The position numbers were made by a program, and so were the translations under genes. From Escherichia coli (GTDB lineage: Bacteria > Pseudomonadota > Gammaproteobacteria > Enterobacterales > Enterobacteriaceae), in NCBI RefSeq assembly GCF_013315695.1, contig NZ_CP054353.1: a DNA stretch of 64,000 nucleotides, one strand, 5' to 3'. The notes beneath the pieces are model-generated. The model was not told the DNA's origin. It did not search any database and saw only the letters and a list, made by a program, of their open reading frames with translations. This document shows, one piece after another, positions 5,485 through 45,939 of the stretch (positions are counted from its first letter, which is position 1; the number at the start of each line of letters is the position of its first letter).

Positions 5485-7725
5485 ATGGCAAAAAACACAT
5501 CTTGCGGTGTCCAACTGCGTATTCGTGGCAAAGTGCAGGGCGTCGGTTTTCGTCCGTTTGTCTGGCAACTGGCACAGCAATTAAATCTTCACGGCGATGT
5601 TTGTAATGACGGCGATGGCGTAGAAGTCCGGCTGCTGGAAGCCCCGGAAACGTTTCTTGTTCAATTGCATCAGCACTGCCCGCCACTGGCGCGTATTGAT
5701 AGCGTCGAGCGTGAGCCGTTTATCTGGTCACAACTGCCCACTGAGTTCACCATCCGCCAGAGCGCGGGTGGCGTCATGAATACGCAAATTGTTCCCGATG
5801 CCGCGACTTGCCCTGCTTGCCTTGCCGAAATGAATACCCCAGGCGAACGACGCTGGCGTTATCCGTTTATCAACTGTACCCACTGCGGCCCACGTTTCAC
5901 CATTATTCGCGCGATGCCTTACGACCGCCCGTTTACCGTGATGGCGGCGTTTCCGCTGTGTCCGGCCTGTGACAAAGAATATCGCGACCCGCTCGATCGT
6001 CGCTTCCACGCCCAGCCGGTGGCCTGCCCGGAGTGTGGCCCACATCTTGAATGGGTAAGTCATGGTGAACATGCAGAACAAGAGGCGGCATTACAGGCAG
6101 CTATCGCACAGTTAAAAATGGGCAACATTGTCGCCATCAAAGGGATTGGCGGATTTCATCTCGCCTGCGATGCGCGTAACAGTAACGCGGTGGCGACACT
6201 ACGGGCACGCAAACATCGCCCGGCGAAACCGCTGGCGGTCATGTTGCCAGTGGCTGACGGTTTACCTGACGCTGCGCGCCAGTTGCTTACCACGCCCGCC
6301 GCGCCGATTGTTCTGGTGGATAAAAAATACGTTCCTGAGCTTTGTGATGATATCGCCCCTGGCCTTAACGAAGTTGGGGTGATGTTGCCTGCGAACCCGC
6401 TCCAGCATTTGCTGTTACAGGAACTGCAATGCCCGCTGGTGATGACCTCCGGCAACCTGAGCGGTAAACCACCAGCTATCAGCAACGAACAGGCGCTGGC
6501 GGATTTGCAGGGGATTGCCGACGGATTCTTGATACATAACCGCGACATCGTGCAGCGGATGGATGATTCGGTGGTGCGCGAAAACGGCGAAATGCTGCGC
6601 CGTTCGCGGGGGTATGTGCCGGATGCGCTGGCTTTGCCTCCGGGCTTTAAAAATGTTCCGCCTGTGCTGTGTCTCGGTGCGGATCTGAAAAACACCTTCT
6701 GCCTGGTGCGCGGCGAACAAGCGGTGTTGAGTCAGCATCTGGGCGATTTAAGTGACGATGGCATCCAGATGCAGTGGCGCGAAGCGTTACGCCTGATGCA
6801 AAACATCTACGATTTCACTCCGCAATACGTTGTGCATGACGCGCATCCGGGCTATATCTCCAGCCAGTGGGCGCGCGAAATGAATCTGCCGACGCAAACG
6901 GTACTGCATCATCATGCCCACGCGGCGGCGTGTCTGGCAGAACATCACTGGCCGCTGGATGGCGGTGATGTCATTGCGTTGACGCTCGACGGTATCGGTA
7001 TGGGGGAGAATGGCGCTTTGTGGGGCGGCGAGTGTCTGCGGGTGAACTATCGCGAATGCCAGCATCTGGGCGGCTTGCCTGCGGTGGCGCTTCCGGGTGG
7101 CGATTTTGCGGCGAAGCAGCCGTGGCGTAACCTGCTGGCGCAGTGCCTGCGCTTTGTGCCGGAGTGGCAGAATTACCCTGAAACGGCAAGTGTGCAACAG
7201 CAAAACTGGAGCGTGCTGGCGCGGGCCATTGAGCGTGGAATTAACGCGCCGCTGGCGTCGTCGTGTGGGCGTTTGTTCGATGCTGTGGCGGCGGCACTGG
7301 GCTGTGCGCCAGCCATGTTAAGTTATGAAGGTGAAGCGGCTTGCGCCCTCGAGGCGCTGGCGGCTTCGAGCCAGGGAGTGACGCATCCGGTGACGATACC
7401 GCTGGTGGACAATCAACTGGATCTCGCCACTTTCTGGCAGCAGTGGCTGAACTGGCAGGCACCGGTTAATCAACGCGCGTGGGCGTTTCATGATGCGCTG
7501 GCGCAGGGGTTTGCCGCGTTGATGCGTGAGCAGGCCACGATGCGCGGTATCACTACGCTGGTATTTAGCGGTGGGGTTATTCATAACCGATTGCTGCGTA
7601 CACGCCTGGCGCATTATCTCGCTGATTTCACATTGCTCTTTCCACAGAGTTTACCGGCGGGCGATGGCGGGTTGTCTCTGGGGCAGGGGGTTATTGTTGC
7701 GGCGCGCATCCTGCATGCTGCATAG
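5485..7725 (+). CDS. hypF: [NiFe]-hydrogenase maturation carbamoyltransferase HypF
   Basis: Acylphosphatase-like N-terminus ([10 protein letters not shown]), two CxxC...CxxC zinc-finger pairs, YrdC-like and Kae1-like C-terminal domains; start trimmed to MAKNTSCGV. Confidence 0.92.
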
Positions 7726-7803
7726 TGGCGGATGTGGCGTAACGAAGCGTTAAAAGTAGCGCGGACAGTCCCCTCGCCCTTTGGGCGAGGGAGAAAACCA
7801 TGC

Positions 7804-8937
7804 CTACATCGGCAACGTTTTCAACAATCCAAACGCCTCTTTCATCCGATCCTCACTGACCACAAAGGCGCGAAGCTGGTCACCATCGTCAACACCGCGC
7901 GCCACCATTCCCTGGCGTTCGGTATTAATTTGCCAGCGTAAATCCTGACGCTGGGTTTCGCCTGCCAGATGTAGCGGTAATTCTGGCGTTTTGATTTTCA
8001 CCAGCATCGCCGGGAGTTTCAGCGGCGTGTTATTGCCGAGAAGATTTTTTGCCAGCACCATTGCGCTAAGTTGAATCGGCTGGAGGAACGGCAATACCTG
8101 ACCGTTAATTTCCGCGCAATCGCCCAGCGCATAAATATCGGCATTACTGGTTTGCAGATAGCTATCGACGCAAACGCCACGATTAATCGTCAGCCCGGCG
8201 CGTCGTGCCAGGGCTGTTTCCGGGCGCAGCCCGGTGGCGGCAATTACCGCATCCACTTCGATACTACGCTGGTGGTCCAGCGTTGCCAGAATGCCAGAAT
8301 CCGTTTTTTCCAGCCCCTGTAACTGAGATTTCAACAGCAGATGAACGCCCATCTCCGTCAACCGATGCTGCAAGCGGCTGCTTACTTCCGGTGGCATTAA
8401 CGACGCCAGAATACTGGCAGCGTTGTCGATTAGCGTGACCGCTTTGCCTGCACGACAAAAATCCATCGCCAGTTCGCTACCAATCAAACCACCGCCAACA
8501 ATCAACACGCGTCGGGCATCCCGCAGTTGCGTTTCACAGGCGCGATACTCTTGCTGACTATTTAACGTCAGCATTAACTCACGCCCAGGCACAGGCGGGA
8601 CAAAGGCACTGGCACCGGTTGCCAGTACTAGTTTGTCGTATTGCCACTGATTATTCTGGCTTTTCACCACACGGGCTTCGGCATCGATATCCGTCACCCA
8701 GGTTTGTGGAAACAGGTGCAGATTAAACTGCTCGGCAAATTCACCCGCCGTCTGGCGGGTAAGGTCGTCGGCACGTTGCCCCTGACTGATAACATGGCTG
8801 AGGTCAGGTTTGTTGTACTCATCCATGCTGTCGGCGGCAATCAGAGTTAATGGAATACTGGCGTCCTGTTTGCGAATATTTTTCACCAGTTGGCGGGCGG
8901 CGAAGCCCGAACCAATGATCACAATGCTGTTGCTCAT
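7804..8937 (-). CDS. norW: NADH:flavorubredoxin reductase
   Basis: 377-aa ORF with FAD/NAD(P) dinucleotide-binding motifs ([15 protein letters not shown]); start overlaps the norV stop (ATGA). Confidence 0.93.
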
Positions 8938-10373
8938 TTTGCCTCCGATGCCAGTTCGTCAAAGACGTCTTTGCCGAGAGAGCATTCCGGGCACAGGAAG
9001 TTATCCGGGACTTCACTCCACGGCGTTCCTGGCGCAACGTCCTGCATTGGCTCACCTTTTGCCGGATCGTAAATCCACTGGCAGACGCTGCATTGCATCC
9101 GTGGGCCGAGGTCAGCCGTCGTGGCGGCAGAGGTTTCTTCTTTAACCACCGTATTCACCGTGCTCTGCGGCAGCGGCGCGAGCGCCCACTGACGGGCGAT
9201 TTCGCGACCGTGTTCACGACATAACTCCAGAGCGTCCTGGTCTGGTCGCCATTTGGCTTTCAGGCTAAGCGACATTTCGAAACCCGCATCCTGCAGGCGC
9301 GTGGAAAGACGATCCACCGCACCGCCGCTCCAGCCGTGAGAGCCGAAAGCACTAGCGCGTTTGTTACGGAAGCGTAATCCGGTCATCTCCTCCACCAGCC
9401 CGGCGATTTTCGGCATCATCACATTATTCATCGTAGAGGTGCCGACCAGCACGCCTTTTGAGCGGAAGACATTGGTCAGGATTTCGTTTTTATCGCTTCG
9501 GGCGACGTTGAAAATTTTCACCGCCACGCGTGGGTCGGTTTCCGCAATCCCCTGGGCGATAGCGTCAGCCATCATGCGGGTGTTATTCGACATGGTGTCG
9601 TAGAAAATGGTGATTCTGTCTTCCTGATAATCCGCCGCCCATTTCAGGTACAGCTCGACAATTTGCGTCGGGTTATCGCGCCATACCACGCCGTGAGAGG
9701 TCGCTATCATATCGACTGGCAAGTTAAAGCCTAGGATCTCGGTAATTTTCGGCGTTACCAGGCGGCTGAACGGCGTCAGGATATTGGCGTAGTAACGCTG
9801 GCACTGCTCGAAAAGCTCCGTCTGATCCACTTCATCGTTGAACAGATGCTCGTCGCAGTAGTGCTGACCGAAAGCATCGTTACTGAACAGCACCGCGTCG
9901 CCTGTCAGGTAAGTCATCATGCTGTCCGGCCAGTGCAGCATTGGCGTTTCGACAAAAATGAGCTGTTTGCCGTTGCCGATATCCAGCGTGTCGCCAGTTT
10001 TCACCACATTAAAATTCCACTCCGGATGATGGTGATGACCATTTATCGAGTCGATAGCGTTGGCAGTACAGTAGATCGGCGTATCGGGAATTTGCGCCAT
10101 CAGTTCGGTCAGCGCCCCGGCGTGGTCCTCTTCTGCATGGTTAATCACGATGTAATCGATATCCGCCAGATCGATTTCATTACGCAGGTTCTGCACAAAT
10201 TCGCGGCTGAATTTATGGTCAACGGTGTCGATCAGCACGTTTTTTTCTTCGCGGATGAGGTAGCTGTTGTAGCTGCTGCCGCGCAGCGTTTTATATTCTG
10301 TGCCGTGAAAATCACGCACTTCCCAGTCACGTTGACCAACCCAATGAATGTTATTTTTCACCACAATAGACAT
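8934..10373 (-). CDS. norV: Anaerobic nitric oxide reductase flavorubredoxin
   Basis: 479-aa ORF: metallo-beta-lactamase-like and flavodoxin-like domains plus C-terminal rubredoxin ([10 protein letters not shown]...CPEC). Confidence 0.94.
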
Positions 10374-10418
10374 AGCAACCTCAATTTATTCAGCGTGTTC
10401 TAAAAAGATGTCTTGCTA

Positions 10419-10435
10419 ATTGCAGATTGCGTGCC
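10419..10435 (-). promoter_or_regulatory. sigma54 promoter (-24 TGGCAC / -12 CTGCA) for norVW
   Basis: Reverse complement reads TGGCACgcaatCTGCA, canonical -24/-12 spacing, upstream of the norV start. Confidence 0.8.
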
Positions 10436-10491
10436 AGTTTTTTATCTGATTGATTTTTATGTATAAATTAATTCATGCTCATTAATGAGTA

Positions 10492-10547
10492 GTCAAAATG
10501 ACTATTAATCAAATGGTCGATATGACAATATCTATAGTCAAATTGAC
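10492..10547. promoter_or_regulatory. Three NorR enhancer sites (GT-N7-AC inverted repeats) in the norR-norV divergent region
   Basis: GTCAAAATGAC (10492-10502), GTCGATATGAC (10516-10526), GTCAAATTGAC (10537-10547) match the NorR binding consensus. Confidence 0.8.
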
Positions 10548-10559
10548 AGTGAGGCAAAG

Positions 10560-12074
10560 ATGAGTTTTTCCGTTGATGTGCTGGCGAATATCGCCATCGA
10601 ATTGCAGCGTGGGATTGGTCATCAGGATCGTTTTCAGCGCCTGATCACCACGCTGCGTCAGGTGCTGGAGTGCGATGCGTCTGCATTGCTACGTTACGAC
10701 TCGCGGCAGTTTATTCCGCTTGCCATCGACGGGCTGGCAAAGGATGTACTCGGTAGACGCTTTGCGCTGGAAGGGCATCCACGGCTGGAAGCGATTGCCC
10801 GCGCCGGGGACGTGGTGCGCTTTCCCGCAGACAGCGAATTGCCCGATCCCTATGACGGTTTGATTCCCGGGCAGGAGAGTCTGAAGGTTCACGCCTGCGT
10901 TGGTCTGCCATTGTTTGCCGGGCAAAACCTGATCGGCGCATTGACGCTCGACGGGATGCAGCCCGATCAGTTCGATGTTTTCAGCGACGAAGAGTTACGC
11001 CTGATTGCCGCGCTGGCGGCGGGAGCGTTAAGCAATGCGTTGCTGATTGAACAACTGGAAAGTCAGAATATGCTGCCGGGCGATGCCGCGCCGTTTGAAG
11101 CGCTGAAAGAGACGCAGATGATCGGCCTGTCGCCAGGCATGACGCAATTGAAAAAAGAGATTGAGATTGTGGCGGCGTCCGATCTCAACGTCCTGATTAG
11201 CGGTGAGACGGGAACCGGTAAGGAGCTGGTGGCGAAAGCGATTCATGAAGCCTCGCCAAGGGCGGTGAATCCGTTGGTCTATCTCAACTGTGCCGCACTG
11301 CCGGAAAGTGTGGCGGAAAGTGAGTTGTTCGGGCACGTGAAAGGGGCGTTTACTGGCGCTATCAGTAACCGCAGCGGGAAGTTTGAAATGGCGGATAACG
11401 GCACGCTGTTTCTGGATGAGATCGGCGAGTTGTCGTTGGCATTGCAGGCCAAGCTGCTGAGGGTGTTGCAGTATGGCGATATTCAGCGCGTTGGCGATGA
11501 CCGCAGTTTGCGGGTCGATGTGCGCGTGCTGGCGGCGACTAACCGCGACTTACGCGAAGAGGTGCTGGCAGGGCGATTCCGCGCCGATTTGTTTCATCGC
11601 CTGAGCGTGTTTCCACTTTCGGTGCCGCCGCTGCGTGAGCGGGGCGATGATGTCATTCTGCTGGCGGGGTATTTCTGCGAACAGTGCCGCCTGCGGTTGG
11701 GGCTTTCCCGCGTGGTGTTAAGTTCCGGGGCGCGGAATTTATTGCAACATTATAGTTTCCCGGGGAACGTGCGCGAACTGGAACATGCTATTCATCGGGC
11801 GGTAGTGCTGGCGAGAGCAACCCGCAGCGGCGATGAAGTGATTCTCGAGGCGCAACATTTTGCTTTTCCTGAGGTGACGTTGCCGCCGCGAGAAGCTGCG
11901 GCGGTGCCCGTTGTTAAGCAAAATCTGCGTGAAGCGACAGAAGCGTTCCAGCGTGAAACCATTCGCCAGGCACTGGCACAAAATCATCACAACTGGGCTG
12001 CCTGCGCGCGAATGCTGGAAACTGACGTCGCCAACCTGCATCGGCTGGCGAAACGTCTGGGATTGAAGGATTAA
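10560..12074 (+). CDS. norR: sigma54-dependent NO-responsive transcriptional activator (GAF-AAA+-HTH)
   Basis: 504-aa ORF with Walker [15 protein letters not shown] motif and C-terminal HTH. Confidence 0.94.
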
Positions 12075-23704: not shown

Positions 23705-23890
23705 ATGCTGATTCTGACTCGTCGAGTTGGTGAGACCCTCATGATTGGGGATGAGGTCACCGTGACAGTTTTAGGGGTAAAGGGCAACCAGGTACGTATT
23801 GGCGTAAATGCCCCGAAGGAAGTTTCTGTTCACCGTGAAGAGATCTACCAGCGTATCCAGGCTGAAAAATCCCAGCAGTCCAGTTACTAA
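23705..23890 (+). CDS. csrA: Carbon storage regulator CsrA (RNA-binding global regulator)
   Basis: 61-aa translation [48 protein letters not shown]... recognised as CsrA. Confidence 0.98.
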
Positions 23891-24205: not shown

Positions 24206-24298
24206 GGTGAGGTGGCCGAGAGGCTGAAGGCGCTCCCCTGCTAAGGGAGTATGCGGTCAAAAGCTGCATCCGGGGTTCGAATCCCCGCCTCACCGCCA
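24206..24298 (+). tRNA. serV: tRNA-Ser (anticodon GCU), long variable arm
   Basis: 93-nt sequence GGTGAGGTGGCCGAG...GGTTCGAATCCCCGCCTCACCGCCA with anticodon loop CUGCUAA. Confidence 0.95.
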
Positions 24299-24301
24299 TT
24301 T

Positions 24302-24378
24302 GCATCCGTAGCTCAGCTGGATAGAGTACTCGGCTACGAACCGAGCGGTCGGAGGTTCGAATCCTCCCGGATGCACCA
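24302..24378 (+). tRNA. argV: tRNA-Arg (anticodon ACG)
   Basis: 77-nt GCATCCGTAGCTCAG...GGTTCGAATCCTCCCGGATGCACCA with anticodon ACG. Confidence 0.95.
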
Positions 24379-24440
24379 TCTCTTACTTGATATGGCTTTA
24401 GTAGCGGTATCAATATCAGCAGTAAAATAAATTTCCCGAT

Positions 24441-24517
24441 GCATCCGTAGCTCAGCTGGATAGAGTACTCGGCTACGAACCGAGCGGTCGGAGGTTCGAA
24501 TCCTCCCGGATGCACCA
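24441..24517 (+). tRNA. argY: tRNA-Arg (anticodon ACG), identical copy
   Basis: Identical 77-nt tRNA preceded by an identical 62-bp spacer. Confidence 0.95.
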
Positions 24518-24579
24518 TCTCTTACTTGATATGGCTTTAGTAGCGGTATCAATATCAGCAGTAAAATAAATTTCCCGAT

Positions 24580-24656
24580 GCATCCGTAGCTCAGCTGGAT
24601 AGAGTACTCGGCTACGAACCGAGCGGTCGGAGGTTCGAATCCTCCCGGATGCACCA
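24580..24656 (+). tRNA. argZ: tRNA-Arg (anticodon ACG), identical copy
   Basis: Identical 77-nt tRNA preceded by an identical 62-bp spacer. Confidence 0.95.
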
Positions 24657-24718
24657 TCTCTTACTTGATATGGCTTTAGTAGCGGTATCAATATCAGCAG
24701 TAAAATAAATTTCCCGAT

Positions 24719-24795
24719 GCATCCGTAGCTCAGCTGGATAGAGTACTCGGCTACGAACCGAGCGGTCGGAGGTTCGAATCCTCCCGGATGCACCA
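24719..24795 (+). tRNA. argQ: tRNA-Arg (anticodon ACG), identical copy
   Basis: Identical 77-nt tRNA preceded by an identical 62-bp spacer. Confidence 0.95.
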
Positions 24796-27682: not shown

Positions 27683-27755
27683 AAAAAGGCCACTCGTGAG
27701 TGGCCAAAATTTCATCTCTGAATTCAGGGATGATGATAACAAATGCGCGTCTTTC
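27683..27755 (-). ncRNA. micA: MicA (SraD) small RNA, Hfq-dependent repressor of ompA and other envelope mRNAs
   Basis: Reverse complement reads GAAAGACGCGCATTTGTTATCATCATCCCTGAATTCAGAGATGAAATTTTGGCCACTCACGAGTGGCCTTTTT, terminator hairpin included; sits in the gshA-luxS gap. Confidence 0.9.
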
Positions 27756-28402: not shown

Positions 28403-29941
28403 TTAGTGCGCACCGCCTCCGCCGCCACCTGCGCCAAATGGCGGTTTAGCAAACCACACCAGCCCCAGCAAGACGAGGAATATCCCGGCTGACATCCAGA
28501 AGATCTCATTGGCGGAAATAATCAGCCCCTGATTGGTGATCTGCTGGGCAATCCAGCCTGATGCCTGCTGTTGCGTCATCCCAAGCCCTTCCAGTTGACT
28601 GTACATCGCCTGGGCATTCGGGTTGAACGGGTTTACCGACTCAGTCAACTGCGCATGGTGCAGCGACTCGTGGTTGGTCCACATAGTCGTGGTTATCGAT
28701 GTGCCGATAGACCCCGCCAGCGTTCGCGTAAAGTTGGAGAGGCTCGATGCTGCCGCCAGTCGTTCCGGTGGCAAACCGGACAGCGTAATGGTGGTTAGCG
28801 GCATAAAGAAGCAGGCCACCGCAAAACCCTGGATAAACTGCGGCCAGGCCGACGCGCCAAAATCCATACCCGGTTCAAAGGTATAGGCACGCCAGTAGAA
28901 GCAGACGGCATACATAATAAAGCTGAAGGTTACCAGCCGCCGCATATCCAGTTTATGCGCGAAGCGGCCGATAATCGGCGACAGGATCACCGGAATAATT
29001 CCTACCGGCGCAGAGGCCAGACCTGCCCACGTTGCCGTGTAACCGTAGACCTCCTGCAACAACTGCGGCAGCAGAACAATCGCGCCGAAGTAGAGCATAT
29101 ACGCGAGGCTGATACACAAGCAGCCGATGGTGAAGTTGCGCGACTTAAACAACGACAGATCGACTATCGGGTTATCGTCGGTCAGCTCCCAGACAATCAG
29201 GAAGCAGATAGCCACCACCGCCACCACGGTGAGGATGATAATTTCCTGTGATGAGAACCAGTCCAGCTCTTTACCGCGGTCGAGCATAATCTGCAGGCTG
29301 CCGATACCAATAACCAGCAGTGCCAGCCCCACGGCATCAATCCGCCGCCGTTCGGTGCGGGTTTCACGTCCGCGCAGAGTTTGCAGTGTCATCAACACCA
29401 CCGCCACGCCAATCGGCACGTTGATGAAGAATATCCAGCCCCAGTGGTAATTATCGCTGATATACCCACCGAGGATCGGGCCGCAAATTGGCGCGACAAT
29501 CACCGTCATTGACCACAACGCCAGCGCGATCGAGCGTTTGGCTGGCGGGTAGTTATTCAGCAATAGACTTTGCGAAAGCGGGATCAGCGGCCCGGCGACA
29601 ATCCCCTGAATCACGCGGAAGAAGATCAGCATATTCAGGCTGCTGGAGACACCACATGCCCACGACGCAATAGCGAAGGCGATGGTGGACCAGAGGAACA
29701 GTTTCACTTCCCCGACGCGCTTTGCCAGCCAGCCGGTAAGCGGGATCGAGATGGCATTCGCCACCCCGAAAGAAGTGATTACCCACGTTCCCTGGCTGAG
29801 CGATGAGCCCAGATTCCCGGCGATAGTGGGGATCGCCACGTTAGCAATGGTGGAGTCCAGCACCTGCATGAATGTCGCCAGTGACAGCGCAATTGTCATA
29901 ATGACCAGTTGTGCGCCTTCCAGCGGTTTTTGCTGTTGCAT
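28403..29941 (-). CDS. emrB: Multidrug efflux MFS transporter EmrB (14-TMS DHA2 family)
   Basis: Polytopic membrane ORF; start trimmed to MQQQKPLEG (512 aa). Confidence 0.93.
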   Translation of the reverse strand: MQQQKPLEGAQLVIMTIALSLATFMQVLDSTIANVAIPTIAGNLGSSLSQGTWVITSFGVANAISIPLTGWLAKRVGEVKLFLWSTIAFAIASWACGVSSSLNMLIFFRVIQGIVAGPLIPLSQSLLLNNYPPAKRSIALALWSMTVIVAPICGPILGGYISDNYHWGWIFFINVPIGVAVVLMTLQTLRGRETRTERRRIDAVGLALLVIGIGSLQIMLDRGKELDWFSSQEIIILTVVAVVAICFLIVWELTDDNPIVDLSLFKSRNFTIGCLCISLAYMLYFGAIVLLPQLLQEVYGYTATWAGLASAPVGIIPVILSPIIGRFAHKLDMRRLVTFSFIMYAVCFYWRAYTFEPGMDFGASAWPQFIQGFAVACFFMPLTTITLSGLPPERLAAASSLSNFTRTLAGSIGTSITTTMWTNHESLHHAQLTESVNPFNPNAQAMYSQLEGLGMTQQQASGWIAQQITNQGLIISANEIFWMSAGIFLVLLGLVWFAKPPFGAGGGGGGAH

Positions 29942-41843: not shown

Positions 41844-42051
41844 GATTCGTATTTCCGTTTAAGATGAAGATACGGCGCGATGATACGCGTCGGGTTGTCT
41901 CTCTGTTGATACAGAGATACTAGATGTAGTTGAAAAAATATTCAACCACACAAGATATGGGAATTTTAGATTTATTACGCCACCGATGAATGGCTCAACG
42001 GGGTAGGGGATTTTGTGTTTTTTTGCCGGGCGAATACCCGGCATCAAGAAG

Positions 42052-42483
42052 TTACATCCGCATGGAAACGGCCAGACGGTTAAAACAATTCATCAGCCCG
42101 ATGGCAAACGTTAAGTCGCTGATCTCTGCTGCGCTGAAATGCTCAAGCAAAGGCTGATAAACCTCGTCTTCCGCATGGGTTCTGGCAATTTCGGTTACCG
42201 ATTCCGCCCATGCCAGCGCCGCCCGCTCGCGTTCATCAAAATGATGGCTTACGCGCCAACCTGCCAGGGCGTCCAGTTTGTGCTGTGGCACGCCGGATTT
42301 GCGCAATGCTTTGCTGTGCATCTCCAGACAAAATGCGCAGCCGTTGATTTGCGAGACGCGCAAATAAACTAACTCCATCAACGTGGTATCCAGCGTGCTA
42401 TTTTCCAGTGCCGTTTTGGCCTGCACTAGTGCGTTATACACTGCCGGGCTAAGTTCGTAGTAAGGCTGACGTAATGTAGTCAT
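42052..42483 (-). CDS. AhpD-like / carboxymuconolactone decarboxylase family protein
   Basis: 143-aa ORF containing the AhpD-core motif CxxCxxxH (GCAFCLEMH). Confidence 0.75.
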   Translation of the reverse strand: MTTLRQPYYELSPAVYNALVQAKTALENSTLDTTLMELVYLRVSQINGCAFCLEMHSKALRKSGVPQHKLDALAGWRVSHHFDERERAALAWAESVTEIARTHAEDEVYQPLLEHFSAAEISDLTFAIGLMNCFNRLAVSMRM

Positions 42484-42570
42484 ACAGTTTCTCCTCTTAT
42501 TAACGCCCGCAATGTAGCACTATAATGGACTGCTAAAGAGAGCCATAAATTACCTAAAAAAGCAGACCAT

Positions 42571-43905
42571 ATGCCGCGCTATCAGGATATCGCCCGTCAG
42601 TTAAAAACGGCTATTGAGCAAGGGGAACTGAAACCCGGCGCAAGGCTGCCTTCAAGTCGTACCTGGTCGCAGGAGCTGGGGGTGTCTCGTTCCACTGTCG
42701 AAAATGCGTATGCTGAGCTGGTGGCGCAAGGATGGCTGATCAGGCGGGGACAGGCTGGCACATTTGTCAGTGAGCGGATATATCCGCAACAATCTACTGT
42801 ACAAGTTGTAGCTTTTGCCGGTGAAAGTCAGCAACCGTTGCCATTTCAAATGGGATTACCCGCACTCGATCTCTTTCCGCGAGAGCTGTGGGCGCGGGTG
42901 ATGGGGCGTCGCCTTCGTACCCAGACGCGCTTTGATTTGGCGTTAGGCGATGTTTGCGGTGAGGTGGCGTTGCGCGAGGCAATAGTTGATTACTTACGCG
43001 TTTCACGTGGGATTGATTGTCAGCCAGAGCAGGTCTTTATCACTCACGGTTATGCGGCCTCAATAGCTTTAATTCTGCACGCGCTGGCGAAACCGGGAAA
43101 CGGGATGTGGATAGAAGATCCCGGCTTTCCACTGATTCGCCCGATTGTCACTCGCCATGATGTGGAAATTTTGCCTGTGCCGGTTGATGACAATGGACTG
43201 GATATCACAAGCGGAATACAAAATTATCCTGATGCGCGTTTTGCCCTGATAACACCAGCACACCAAAGTCCGTTGGGTGTGGCGCTCTCTTTAGCGCGCA
43301 GGCATCAGATACTGGAATGGGCAGATCGTAGTCAGGCATGGATTATTGAAGATGATTATGACAGTGAGTTTCGCTATCACGGTAAGCCGTTACCGGCGTT
43401 AAAAAGTCTCGACGCACCGCAGCGGGTAATTTATGCCGGAACATTCAGCAAAGCGCTATTTCCTGCATTGCGCTGTGCGTGGCTGGTGGTGCCGGTGAAG
43501 CAAATTGCACAATTCCGCCACCAGGCGTCACTGGCTCCATGTGCGGTACCTGTTCTATGGCAGAACACACTGGCAGACTTTCTTCGCGAGGGGCATTTCT
43601 GGCGGCATCTGAAGAAAATGCGTCAGCATTATGCTCAACGTCGGCAATGGATTGAGCAAGCGTTGACGCAGCAAGGATTTCAGGTTGTGCCGCAGAAAGG
43701 TGGTATCCAGATGGTGATCAGAATGATAGGCGATGATATTGCCCATGCGCGTAAAGCCAATGCTGCAGGCCTTGCGGTGCAGGCACTTAGCGACTGGCGT
43801 ATCCGTTCAAGTGGGGAAGGTGGATTACTGCTTTCGTTTACTAATATCGTTAACGAAGGTATGGCGCGACAGGTAGCACAACAATTACGTAAAGCCTTAA
43901 GCTAA
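42571..43905 (+). CDS. MocR/GabR-type regulator (GntR wHTH fused to a PLP-dependent aminotransferase-like domain)
   Basis: N-terminal GntR HTH (LPSSRTWSQELGVSRSTVENAYAELV) and aminotransferase-fold C-terminus with the likely PLP lysine in AGTFSKALFP; divergent from the AhpD-like gene. Confidence 0.8.
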   Translation: MPRYQDIARQLKTAIEQGELKPGARLPSSRTWSQELGVSRSTVENAYAELVAQGWLIRRGQAGTFVSERIYPQQSTVQVVAFAGESQQPLPFQMGLPALDLFPRELWARVMGRRLRTQTRFDLALGDVCGEVALREAIVDYLRVSRGIDCQPEQVFITHGYAASIALILHALAKPGNGMWIEDPGFPLIRPIVTRHDVEILPVPVDDNGLDITSGIQNYPDARFALITPAHQSPLGVALSLARRHQILEWADRSQAWIIEDDYDSEFRYHGKPLPALKSLDAPQRVIYAGTFSKALFPALRCAWLVVPVKQIAQFRHQASLAPCAVPVLWQNTLADFLREGHFWRHLKKMRQHYAQRRQWIEQALTQQGFQVVPQKGGIQMVIRMIGDDIAHARKANAAGLAVQALSDWRIRSSGEGGLLLSFTNIVNEGMARQVAQQLRKALS

Positions 43906-45273: not shown

Positions 45274-45939
45274 GCTAATGCTCCTTAATAAAAGCGTAAT
45301 GGGATGTTAATGGAGGTGAAAGCAGTGGATCTCATTGCCATCTGCATTTTCGCATAGCGTATATCGCTGGCTATGACTAATCAATTAGTGAAAAATTTTT
45401 ATTTAATCTGTTTTTGTAGATAAAATATTCCGTAACGGCGCGTTTTTTGTACATTGTGGATTTTTACATGCCGATATGATTTATTTTTAATTAAATCAAT
45501 TGGATATGTGTTTACCTTTATTTTCACTCATGAAGGTTTGGGGGGAGGTAACGCTATAAGCGTAGAGAATTCGGTGTATGTCGTGACCGGGTCATTTTCA
45601 GCATTTTTTATGCCAGATAACGTACATTGACAGCAGAAAGCACCAGTGAGTGATGTTTTCTTTTATTCTGTTGAGTTGCATTTTTATTCACTTTGGTTTT
45701 GTCAGGCTTGCGGAATTAGCGAGCAGAGAGCGCCGCTCTGTTCACCAATAACCGAAATTACTCATCAAAATGGCTAATATATAATCTTGAAATTATTCTG
45801 AGAGTTTCAGAAAATAACAGCTGAAATAATCTCGTGCAGGACTGTAAATAGATTAAATTTTGTGGAAATATAATAAGTGATCGCTTACACTACGCGACGA
45901 AATACTTTTTTGTTTTGGCGTTAAAAGGTTTTCTTTATT

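Follow-up and report, generated by a model that had tools for sequence, protein, structure and literature searches.

The 186 bp that separate norV from norR in the window, by which we mean the whole stretch of 64,000 nucleotides analysed here, can be regarded with high confidence as the native norR-norVW regulatory region of Escherichia coli, most likely working as described for K-12, and nothing in the sequence speaks against this reading. The whole architecture of enhancer, bend and promoter can be located from sequence alone. This control region is already known in detail, and what our analysis adds is only mildly new: a conserved IHF-like core that can be placed precisely, and a clustered polymorphism of the spacer that, judged by consensus match, improves this core in the lineage of the window.

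The locus and its gene products

The window is E. coli chromosome, and a 341-bp query taken from it (10300-10640) matches 5,425 of the 5,426 complete E. coli genomes, every match falling under a norR/norV annotation. The gene order around the region (hydN-hypF-norW-norV / norR-gutQ-srl-mltB-recA) is the usual one for E. coli. The intergenic region extends from 10374 to 10559, between the norV ATG at 10373 on the minus strand and the norR ATG at 10560 on the plus strand. It thus has exactly the 186 bp that an earlier note on this DNA had given for the divergent region, with a G+C content of 31% (51% for the window), and an Rfam scan found no RNA family within or near it. The three genes that concern us are the following:

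7804-8937, minus strand: norW, NADH:flavorubredoxin reductase, 377 aa, full length
8934-10373, minus strand: norV, anaerobic NO reductase flavorubredoxin, 479 aa, full length
10560-12074, plus strand: norR, NO-sensing sigma54 enhancer-binding protein, 504 aa, full length

Each product scores above the cut-off of an NCBIfam equivalog model: NorW with NF003437 (683 bits against 392, covering residues 1-377), NorV with NF003954 (1047 bits against 711, residues 1-479 of 479) and NorR with NF003451 (825 bits against 476, spanning residues 2-503 and including the C-terminal region). Compared with K-12, lengths are unchanged, and there are nine substitutions in NorR (T177A, V182L, Q184E, C316S, Q380L, A389S, T443P, P444R and V446A), three in NorV and seven in NorW. 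NorR has the Pfam domains GAF (22-154), Sigma54_activat (187-353) and AAA lid (359-420) and keeps the GAFTGA motif at 262, Walker A at 215 and Walker B at 283; its HTH gave no separate Pfam match at E<=1e-5. The GAF residues R75, D96, D99, C113 and D131, which work by Tucker and colleagues from 2008 reportedly implicated in the non-haem iron centre of this domain, are all in place. In NorV, the metallo-beta-lactamase/ODP, flavodoxin and rubredoxin domains are kept. None of the three proteins is truncated, and their catalytic and sensing motifs are kept. The earlier note had held the NO-detoxification module to be probably functional, and from this intact sequence that is a fair conclusion for the source strain. 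That the module is complete in this strain has little import beyond annotation.

Several features lie elsewhere in the window. Strain 2017.09.02CC, identical to it over the 341-bp query, is about 98% identical elsewhere, with indels. It lacks a segment of about 1.7 kb between nrdH and ygaM (41958-43904) that contains two open reading frames, one of 143 aa (42052-42483, minus strand), by eye similar to AhpD/carboxymuconolactone decarboxylases, and one of 444 aa (42571-43905, plus strand), by eye similar to PLP regulators of the MocR/GntR type. The hypF-norW intergenic region (7707-7802) does not align with that strain either; the G+C-rich hairpin found within it, CCCCTCGCCCTTTGGGCGAGGG, is probably a terminator or else a variable element of the REP type. 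At 24206-24792, four tRNA genes with identical scores come after a tRNA-Ser gene and repeat with a period of 139 bp; they are annotated as tRNA-Arg in a related strain and differently arranged in 2017.09.02CC. The MicA sRNA is found at 27684-27755 on the minus strand.

NorR sites, sigma54 promoter and leaders

Read from norV to norR, the control elements flanking the spacer are these, with positions relative to the transcription start of norV where a sign is given:

10374-10410, minus strand: norV 5' leader with the Shine-Dalgarno sequence GAGG, inferred transcription start at about 10410
10421-10437, minus strand: sigma54 promoter CTGGCACGCAATCTGCA, GG at -25/-24 and GC at -13/-12, directed at norV
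10492-10502: NorR site 1, GTCAAAATGAC, centre at about -87
10516-10526: NorR site 2, GTCGATATGAC, centre at about -111
10537-10547: NorR site 3, GTCAAATTGAC, centre at about -132, 13 nt from the norR start codon
10548-10559, plus strand: norR leader with the Shine-Dalgarno sequence GAGG (10552-10555), read from sequence; AGTGAGG is conserved

The three GT-N7-AC sites for NorR that had been claimed are exactly the three matches present in the 186 bp. All of them have the stricter form GTC-N5-GAC, and their centres are separated by 24 bp (sites 1 and 2) and 21 bp (sites 2 and 3). Matches to GT-N7-AC are by themselves unconvincing evidence, the motif being common (209 per 64 kb, or about 0.6 expected in 186 bp). 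Together with the chance frequencies of the loose sigma54 and IHF patterns, this abundance would favour the view that the motifs are accidents of A+T-rich intergenic DNA devoid of any regulatory role, a view to which we give practically no credence in the light of the stricter patterns. GTCA-N3-TGAC occurs five times in the window against 0.69 expected, a number reached in none of 100 shuffles, and three GTC-N5-GAC within 186 bp correspond to a Poisson p of about 3e-6 against a background of nine other matches in the 64 kb. A 19-bp weight matrix for NorR, trained on 217 sites from 73 loci outside Escherichia and run over the whole window, a scan that the earlier note had proposed, gave its three highest scores (25.3, 23.1 and 18.4) to exactly these three sites, with site 3 at the top. 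The strict patterns of NorR and sigma54, this ranking and the fixed positions of the elements across species already refute an origin by chance. Furthermore, the sites are identical to sequences verified by experiment in K-12: sites 1, 2 and 3 match the wild-type sequences of the corresponding mutagenic primers of Tucker et al. 2010 (PMC2831303), who mutated and footprinted the three sites and found all of them essential, and site 1 is also identical to the 21-bp NorR1 oligonucleotide of the same work.

The positional evidence comes from a search with NorR of genome contigs, which yielded 80 Enterobacteriaceae loci with 79-99% protein identity; 78 of them had enough upstream DNA and, with the window, make up a set of 79 sequences. 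In nearly all of these the three NorR sites keep both their distances from the norR ATG and their 24/21-bp spacing. On average, each site is about 0.90 identical to the window, a value that falls to 0.52-0.63 for the linkers separating the sites and to 0.52-0.55 for the distal spacer.

Additional NorR-like palindromes were considered and rejected. The candidate for a fourth site, GTCACGTTGAC (10326-10336), is a perfect GTCA-N3-TGAC that falls in codons 13-16 of norV, 37 nt into the gene, and we take it for a by-product of coding: it survives in only 26 of the 79 orthologs and is not ranked by the NorR matrix, and its loss from most orthologs is explained by the freely varying third base of a Gly codon, the peptide GQRD being invariant. 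The GTCA-N3-TGAC matches at 23756 and 29895, the latter in emrB, were taken as chance, since their best matrix score is 16.5 and shuffled windows reach 21. The emrB palindrome, AATTGTCATAATGACCAGT (29891-29909), stands isolated within that gene, fourth in the window with that score and inside the shuffled range.

The sigma54 promoter was found at the position and in the orientation towards norV that had been predicted, but it is not fully canonical, as its -12 element reads CTGCA, one base off TTGCA. The pattern YTGGCACG-N4-YTGCW has a single match in the window, CTGGCACGCAATCTGCA, against 0.05 expected, whereas TGGCAC-N5-TTGCW with one mismatch allowed also has one match against 3.4 expected and is no rarer than chance. 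TGGCAC (or TGGCAT) occupies the promoter position in 79 of 79 loci. Placing GC at -13/-12 puts the transcription start at about 10410, 37 nt before the norV ATG. In methylation-protection experiments, protected or enhanced G residues extended from -84 to -137 (Tucker et al., PMC2831303), and with +1 at 10410 these two limits coincide with norV-sense G residues of the site-1 GTC and the site-3 GAC, so that the published footprint provides an independent check on the start that we infer. Downstream of it, the norV leader block AGCAACCTCAA is well conserved in the 79 orthologous loci.

A second sigma54-like match, CTGGCATAAAAAATGCT, occurs at 45600-45615 on the minus strand, in the long alaE-stpA intergenic region. 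It is directed at alaE, about 315 nt upstream of the start codon, and its pattern matches the window twice against 0.84 expected, which is not above chance.

The spacer, its putative IHF core and variation within E. coli

Between promoter and enhancer lies the DNA that holds the proposed bend and most of the variation:

10437-10491: A+T-rich looping spacer from promoter to enhancer, 55 bp, 80% A+T
10443-10455, minus strand: AATCAATCAGATA (WATCAANNNNTTR), an IHF-like core with one mismatch that lies 6 nt upstream of TGGCAC
10453-10479: polymorphic patch of the spacer, where 8 of the 10 changes relative to K-12 within 10300-10640 are found

Across the 79 loci the spacer has a median A+T content of 80%, and the distance from TGGCAC to site 1 is 54-56 bp in 74 of 77; with a steady length and a poorly conserved sequence, the length of the loop appears constrained and its sequence free. 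The IHF-like core departs from the consensus by ATA in place of TTR. As a single match it is not significant, the window holding 61 one-mismatch matches to the IHF consensus against 59 expected, and its significance derives from its conservation at a fixed offset across loci. A match with at most one mismatch, on the minus strand and 5-6 nt from TGGCAC, is present in 63 of the 79 loci (perfect in 25 of them), compared with 0.7% of shuffled spacers, which take no account of the relatedness among loci; we nevertheless consider the contrast real because the remainder of the spacer has diverged freely. The TTGAT block of the core reaches 0.8-1.0 in the conservation profile. An A+T-rich stretch suited to an IHF bend had been proposed between the NorR sites and the promoter, and such a stretch is present with a position-conserved core inside it. 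These data support a refinement of that proposal, in which the IHF element would consist of the particular conserved core at 10443-10455 and the A+T tract upstream of it, beyond a general richness in A+T.

Alternatively, the A+T-rich spacer of Escherichia might act as flexible or intrinsically bent DNA of fixed length, with IHF binding weakly or non-specifically and the consensus match of the window being incidental. In addition to the chance frequency of one-mismatch matches, this explanation can draw on the degenerate core of Escherichia, with two mismatches in K-12, E. albertii, E. whittamii and others, on the spacer being the least conserved part of the region and the place where E. coli polymorphisms pile up, and on the formation of open complexes without IHF in vitro at high NorR concentrations (PMC2831303). 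However, IHF has been found to bind in K-12 between the enhancer sites and the start site of norV (PMC2831303), and neither the fixed offset of the core in so many species nor the conserved TTGAT block agrees well with non-specific binding. We consider this alternative unlikely and retain a specific IHF element as the preferred reading.

As for the number of IHF sites, a later paper mentions a 'second' one in K-12 PnorV. The 2004 study of Tucker and colleagues is likewise said to have reported two. The spacer of the window offers only two-mismatch candidates for such a site, at 10458-10470 and 10462-10474 on the plus strand, which we rejected, and a search for a second conserved IHF-like position across the 79 orthologous loci found none, 10443-10455 being the only conserved one.

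Relative to K-12 (MC4100), the window shows ten differences over the 341 bp, nine of them intergenic. The spacer interval 10453-10479 accounts for eight, a clustering with a binomial p of about 6e-8 for an interval picked after the fact; a ninth, at 10506, narrowly misses site 1. The three NorR sites and the sigma54 promoter are invariant across seven E. coli strains. The haplotype of the window is a minority one, about 194 of the 5,426 complete genomes being at least 99% identical over the 341 bp, and its spacer version is common to the window, IAI39, SMS-3-5 and CE10.

Two of the substitutions affect IHF-like sequences. The T-to-A change at 10453 converts the AAACAA of K-12 into AATCAA, that is, the WATCAA core of the IHF consensus, so that the core of the window has one mismatch and that of K-12, AAACAATCAGATA, has two; by consensus match, the former is the better of the two. 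The other Escherichia species examined carry AAACAA as K-12 does, whereas the AATCAA of the window matches the TTGAT block of other genera. The C-to-T change at 10506 abolishes a TATCAA found in K-12 between sites 1 and 2. Although rather speculative and on balance improbable, the haplotype (about 3.6% of complete genomes) could be a natural cis-regulatory variant, in which the restored WATCAA and seven further changes in the loop might make E. coli lineages differ in IHF occupancy and in how strongly, or from what threshold, NO induces norVW. On this view the eight differences in 27 bp, where the operon as a whole shows about 2.9%, are more than simple drift would produce, and the patch may be an allele that is old or was imported. 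The spacer polymorphism thus offers a cheap candidate for learning how the quality of an IHF site tunes a sigma54 promoter, in this case PnorV, a widely used NO biosensor.

A related but broader possibility is that the cis elements are intact and the module nonetheless behaves differently in this strain, with an altered threshold or strength of induction or with induction lost. The nine NorR substitutions and the eight spacer differences could point in this direction, but the substitutions lie mostly in inter-domain linkers, NorR scores far over its equivalog cut-off with GAFTGA, Walker A/B and GAF residues intact, and a haplotype present in some 194 complete genomes, well-known strains included, fits maintained function. 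Such a change of behaviour is quite improbable in our opinion, and we favour a module that works as in K-12, presumably with the variant spacer included.

One genome has a rearranged enhancer. In E. coli AF3 (NZ_OZ547117.1), a 45-bp deletion that matches 10499-10543 of the window has joined NorR sites 1 and 3 through the GTCAAA/TGAC arms that they have in common, leaving a single site on the spacer haplotype of the window. It is the only such case in 5,426 complete genomes. Because all three sites are essential in K-12 (PMC2831303), AF3 is predicted to be unable to induce norVW.

Proposed mechanism and comparison with known systems

In the model established for K-12, three NorR sites scaffold a hexamer, binding of NO at the GAF iron centre frees the AAA+ ATPase, IHF bends the intervening DNA and sigma54-RNA polymerase is remodelled (PMC2831303, PMC2941729). 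Transposed to the window, NorR made from the plus-strand gene would bind the three inverted repeats at 10492-10547 as dimers, and the three sites would jointly scaffold its hexamer. Nitric oxide on the iron centre of the GAF domain would free the AAA+ domain for ATP hydrolysis, while IHF, at the core 10443-10455 and the A+T tract upstream of it, would bend the 55-bp spacer and let the hexamer touch the closed complex of sigma54-RNA polymerase on CTGGCACGCAATCTGCA. This contact would open the promoter, with transcription proceeding from about 10410 through norV and then norW, whose products would reduce NO to N2O. Bound NorR probably also damps the transcription of norR, a plausible autorepression because site 3 ends 13 nt before the norR ATG. 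A sigma70 scan of the region found no plus-strand candidate for norR, its lone minus-strand match equalling expectation, so that norR autoregulation rests on this geometry and on statements in other papers.

The primary footprinting study of the K-12 norR-norVW intergenic region is reportedly that of Tucker and colleagues from 2004. The K-12 region, as described by Tucker et al. 2010 (NAR, PMC2831303), agrees with that of the window in its length of 186 bp and, base for base, in its three NorR sites. The agreement extends to the sigma54 promoter, to both leaders including the Shine-Dalgarno sequences, to the gene order hypF-norW-norV / norR-gutQ and to the numbering of the footprint. It differs by the nine intergenic substitutions, eight of them in the 10453-10479 patch and the other at 10506.

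The same norR-norVW arrangement was predicted in other enterobacteria (Rodionov et al. 2005, PMC1274295). In our comparison, Salmonella, Citrobacter, Klebsiella, Enterobacter and Kosakonia share with the window the divergent genes, the sites at -68/-44/-23 from the norR ATG with 24/21-bp spacing, the A+T-rich spacer of 54-56 bp and the IHF-like core 5-6 nt from TGGCAC, a core that is perfect or has one mismatch in most genera other than Escherichia. The -12 pentamer of norV varies: in 40 of 77 loci (Enterobacter, Klebsiella, Kosakonia, Raoultella and others) it is TTGAT, with GA replacing the usually invariant GC, whereas the window and its close relatives have CTGCA, the form of Escherichia, Citrobacter, Salmonella and Kluyvera. 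This cross-species footprint separates what is constrained (three sites, 24/21-bp spacing, a loop of 54-56 bp and one IHF-like core) from what is free (the sequence of the loop).

The IHF-assisted sigma54 promoters nifH/NifA, Pu/XylR and pspA/PspF combine an enhancer located about 80-140 bp upstream, an IHF bend, a -24/-12 promoter and ATP-driven formation of the open complex. What sets NorR apart from them is that assembly of its hexamer and activation of its ATPase require all three sites to serve as a scaffold (PMC2831303). More distant NorR systems, namely NorR-norAB of Ralstonia eutropha and NorR-hmp of Pseudomonas and Vibrio cholerae (PMC1274295, PMC3345576), share the tandem GT-N7-AC repeats upstream of a sigma54 promoter and, as in the window, an NO-sensing activator of GAF-AAA+-HTH composition; by their published description, they differ in having a haem NO reductase or a flavohaemoglobin as target, and in the number and spacing of their sites.
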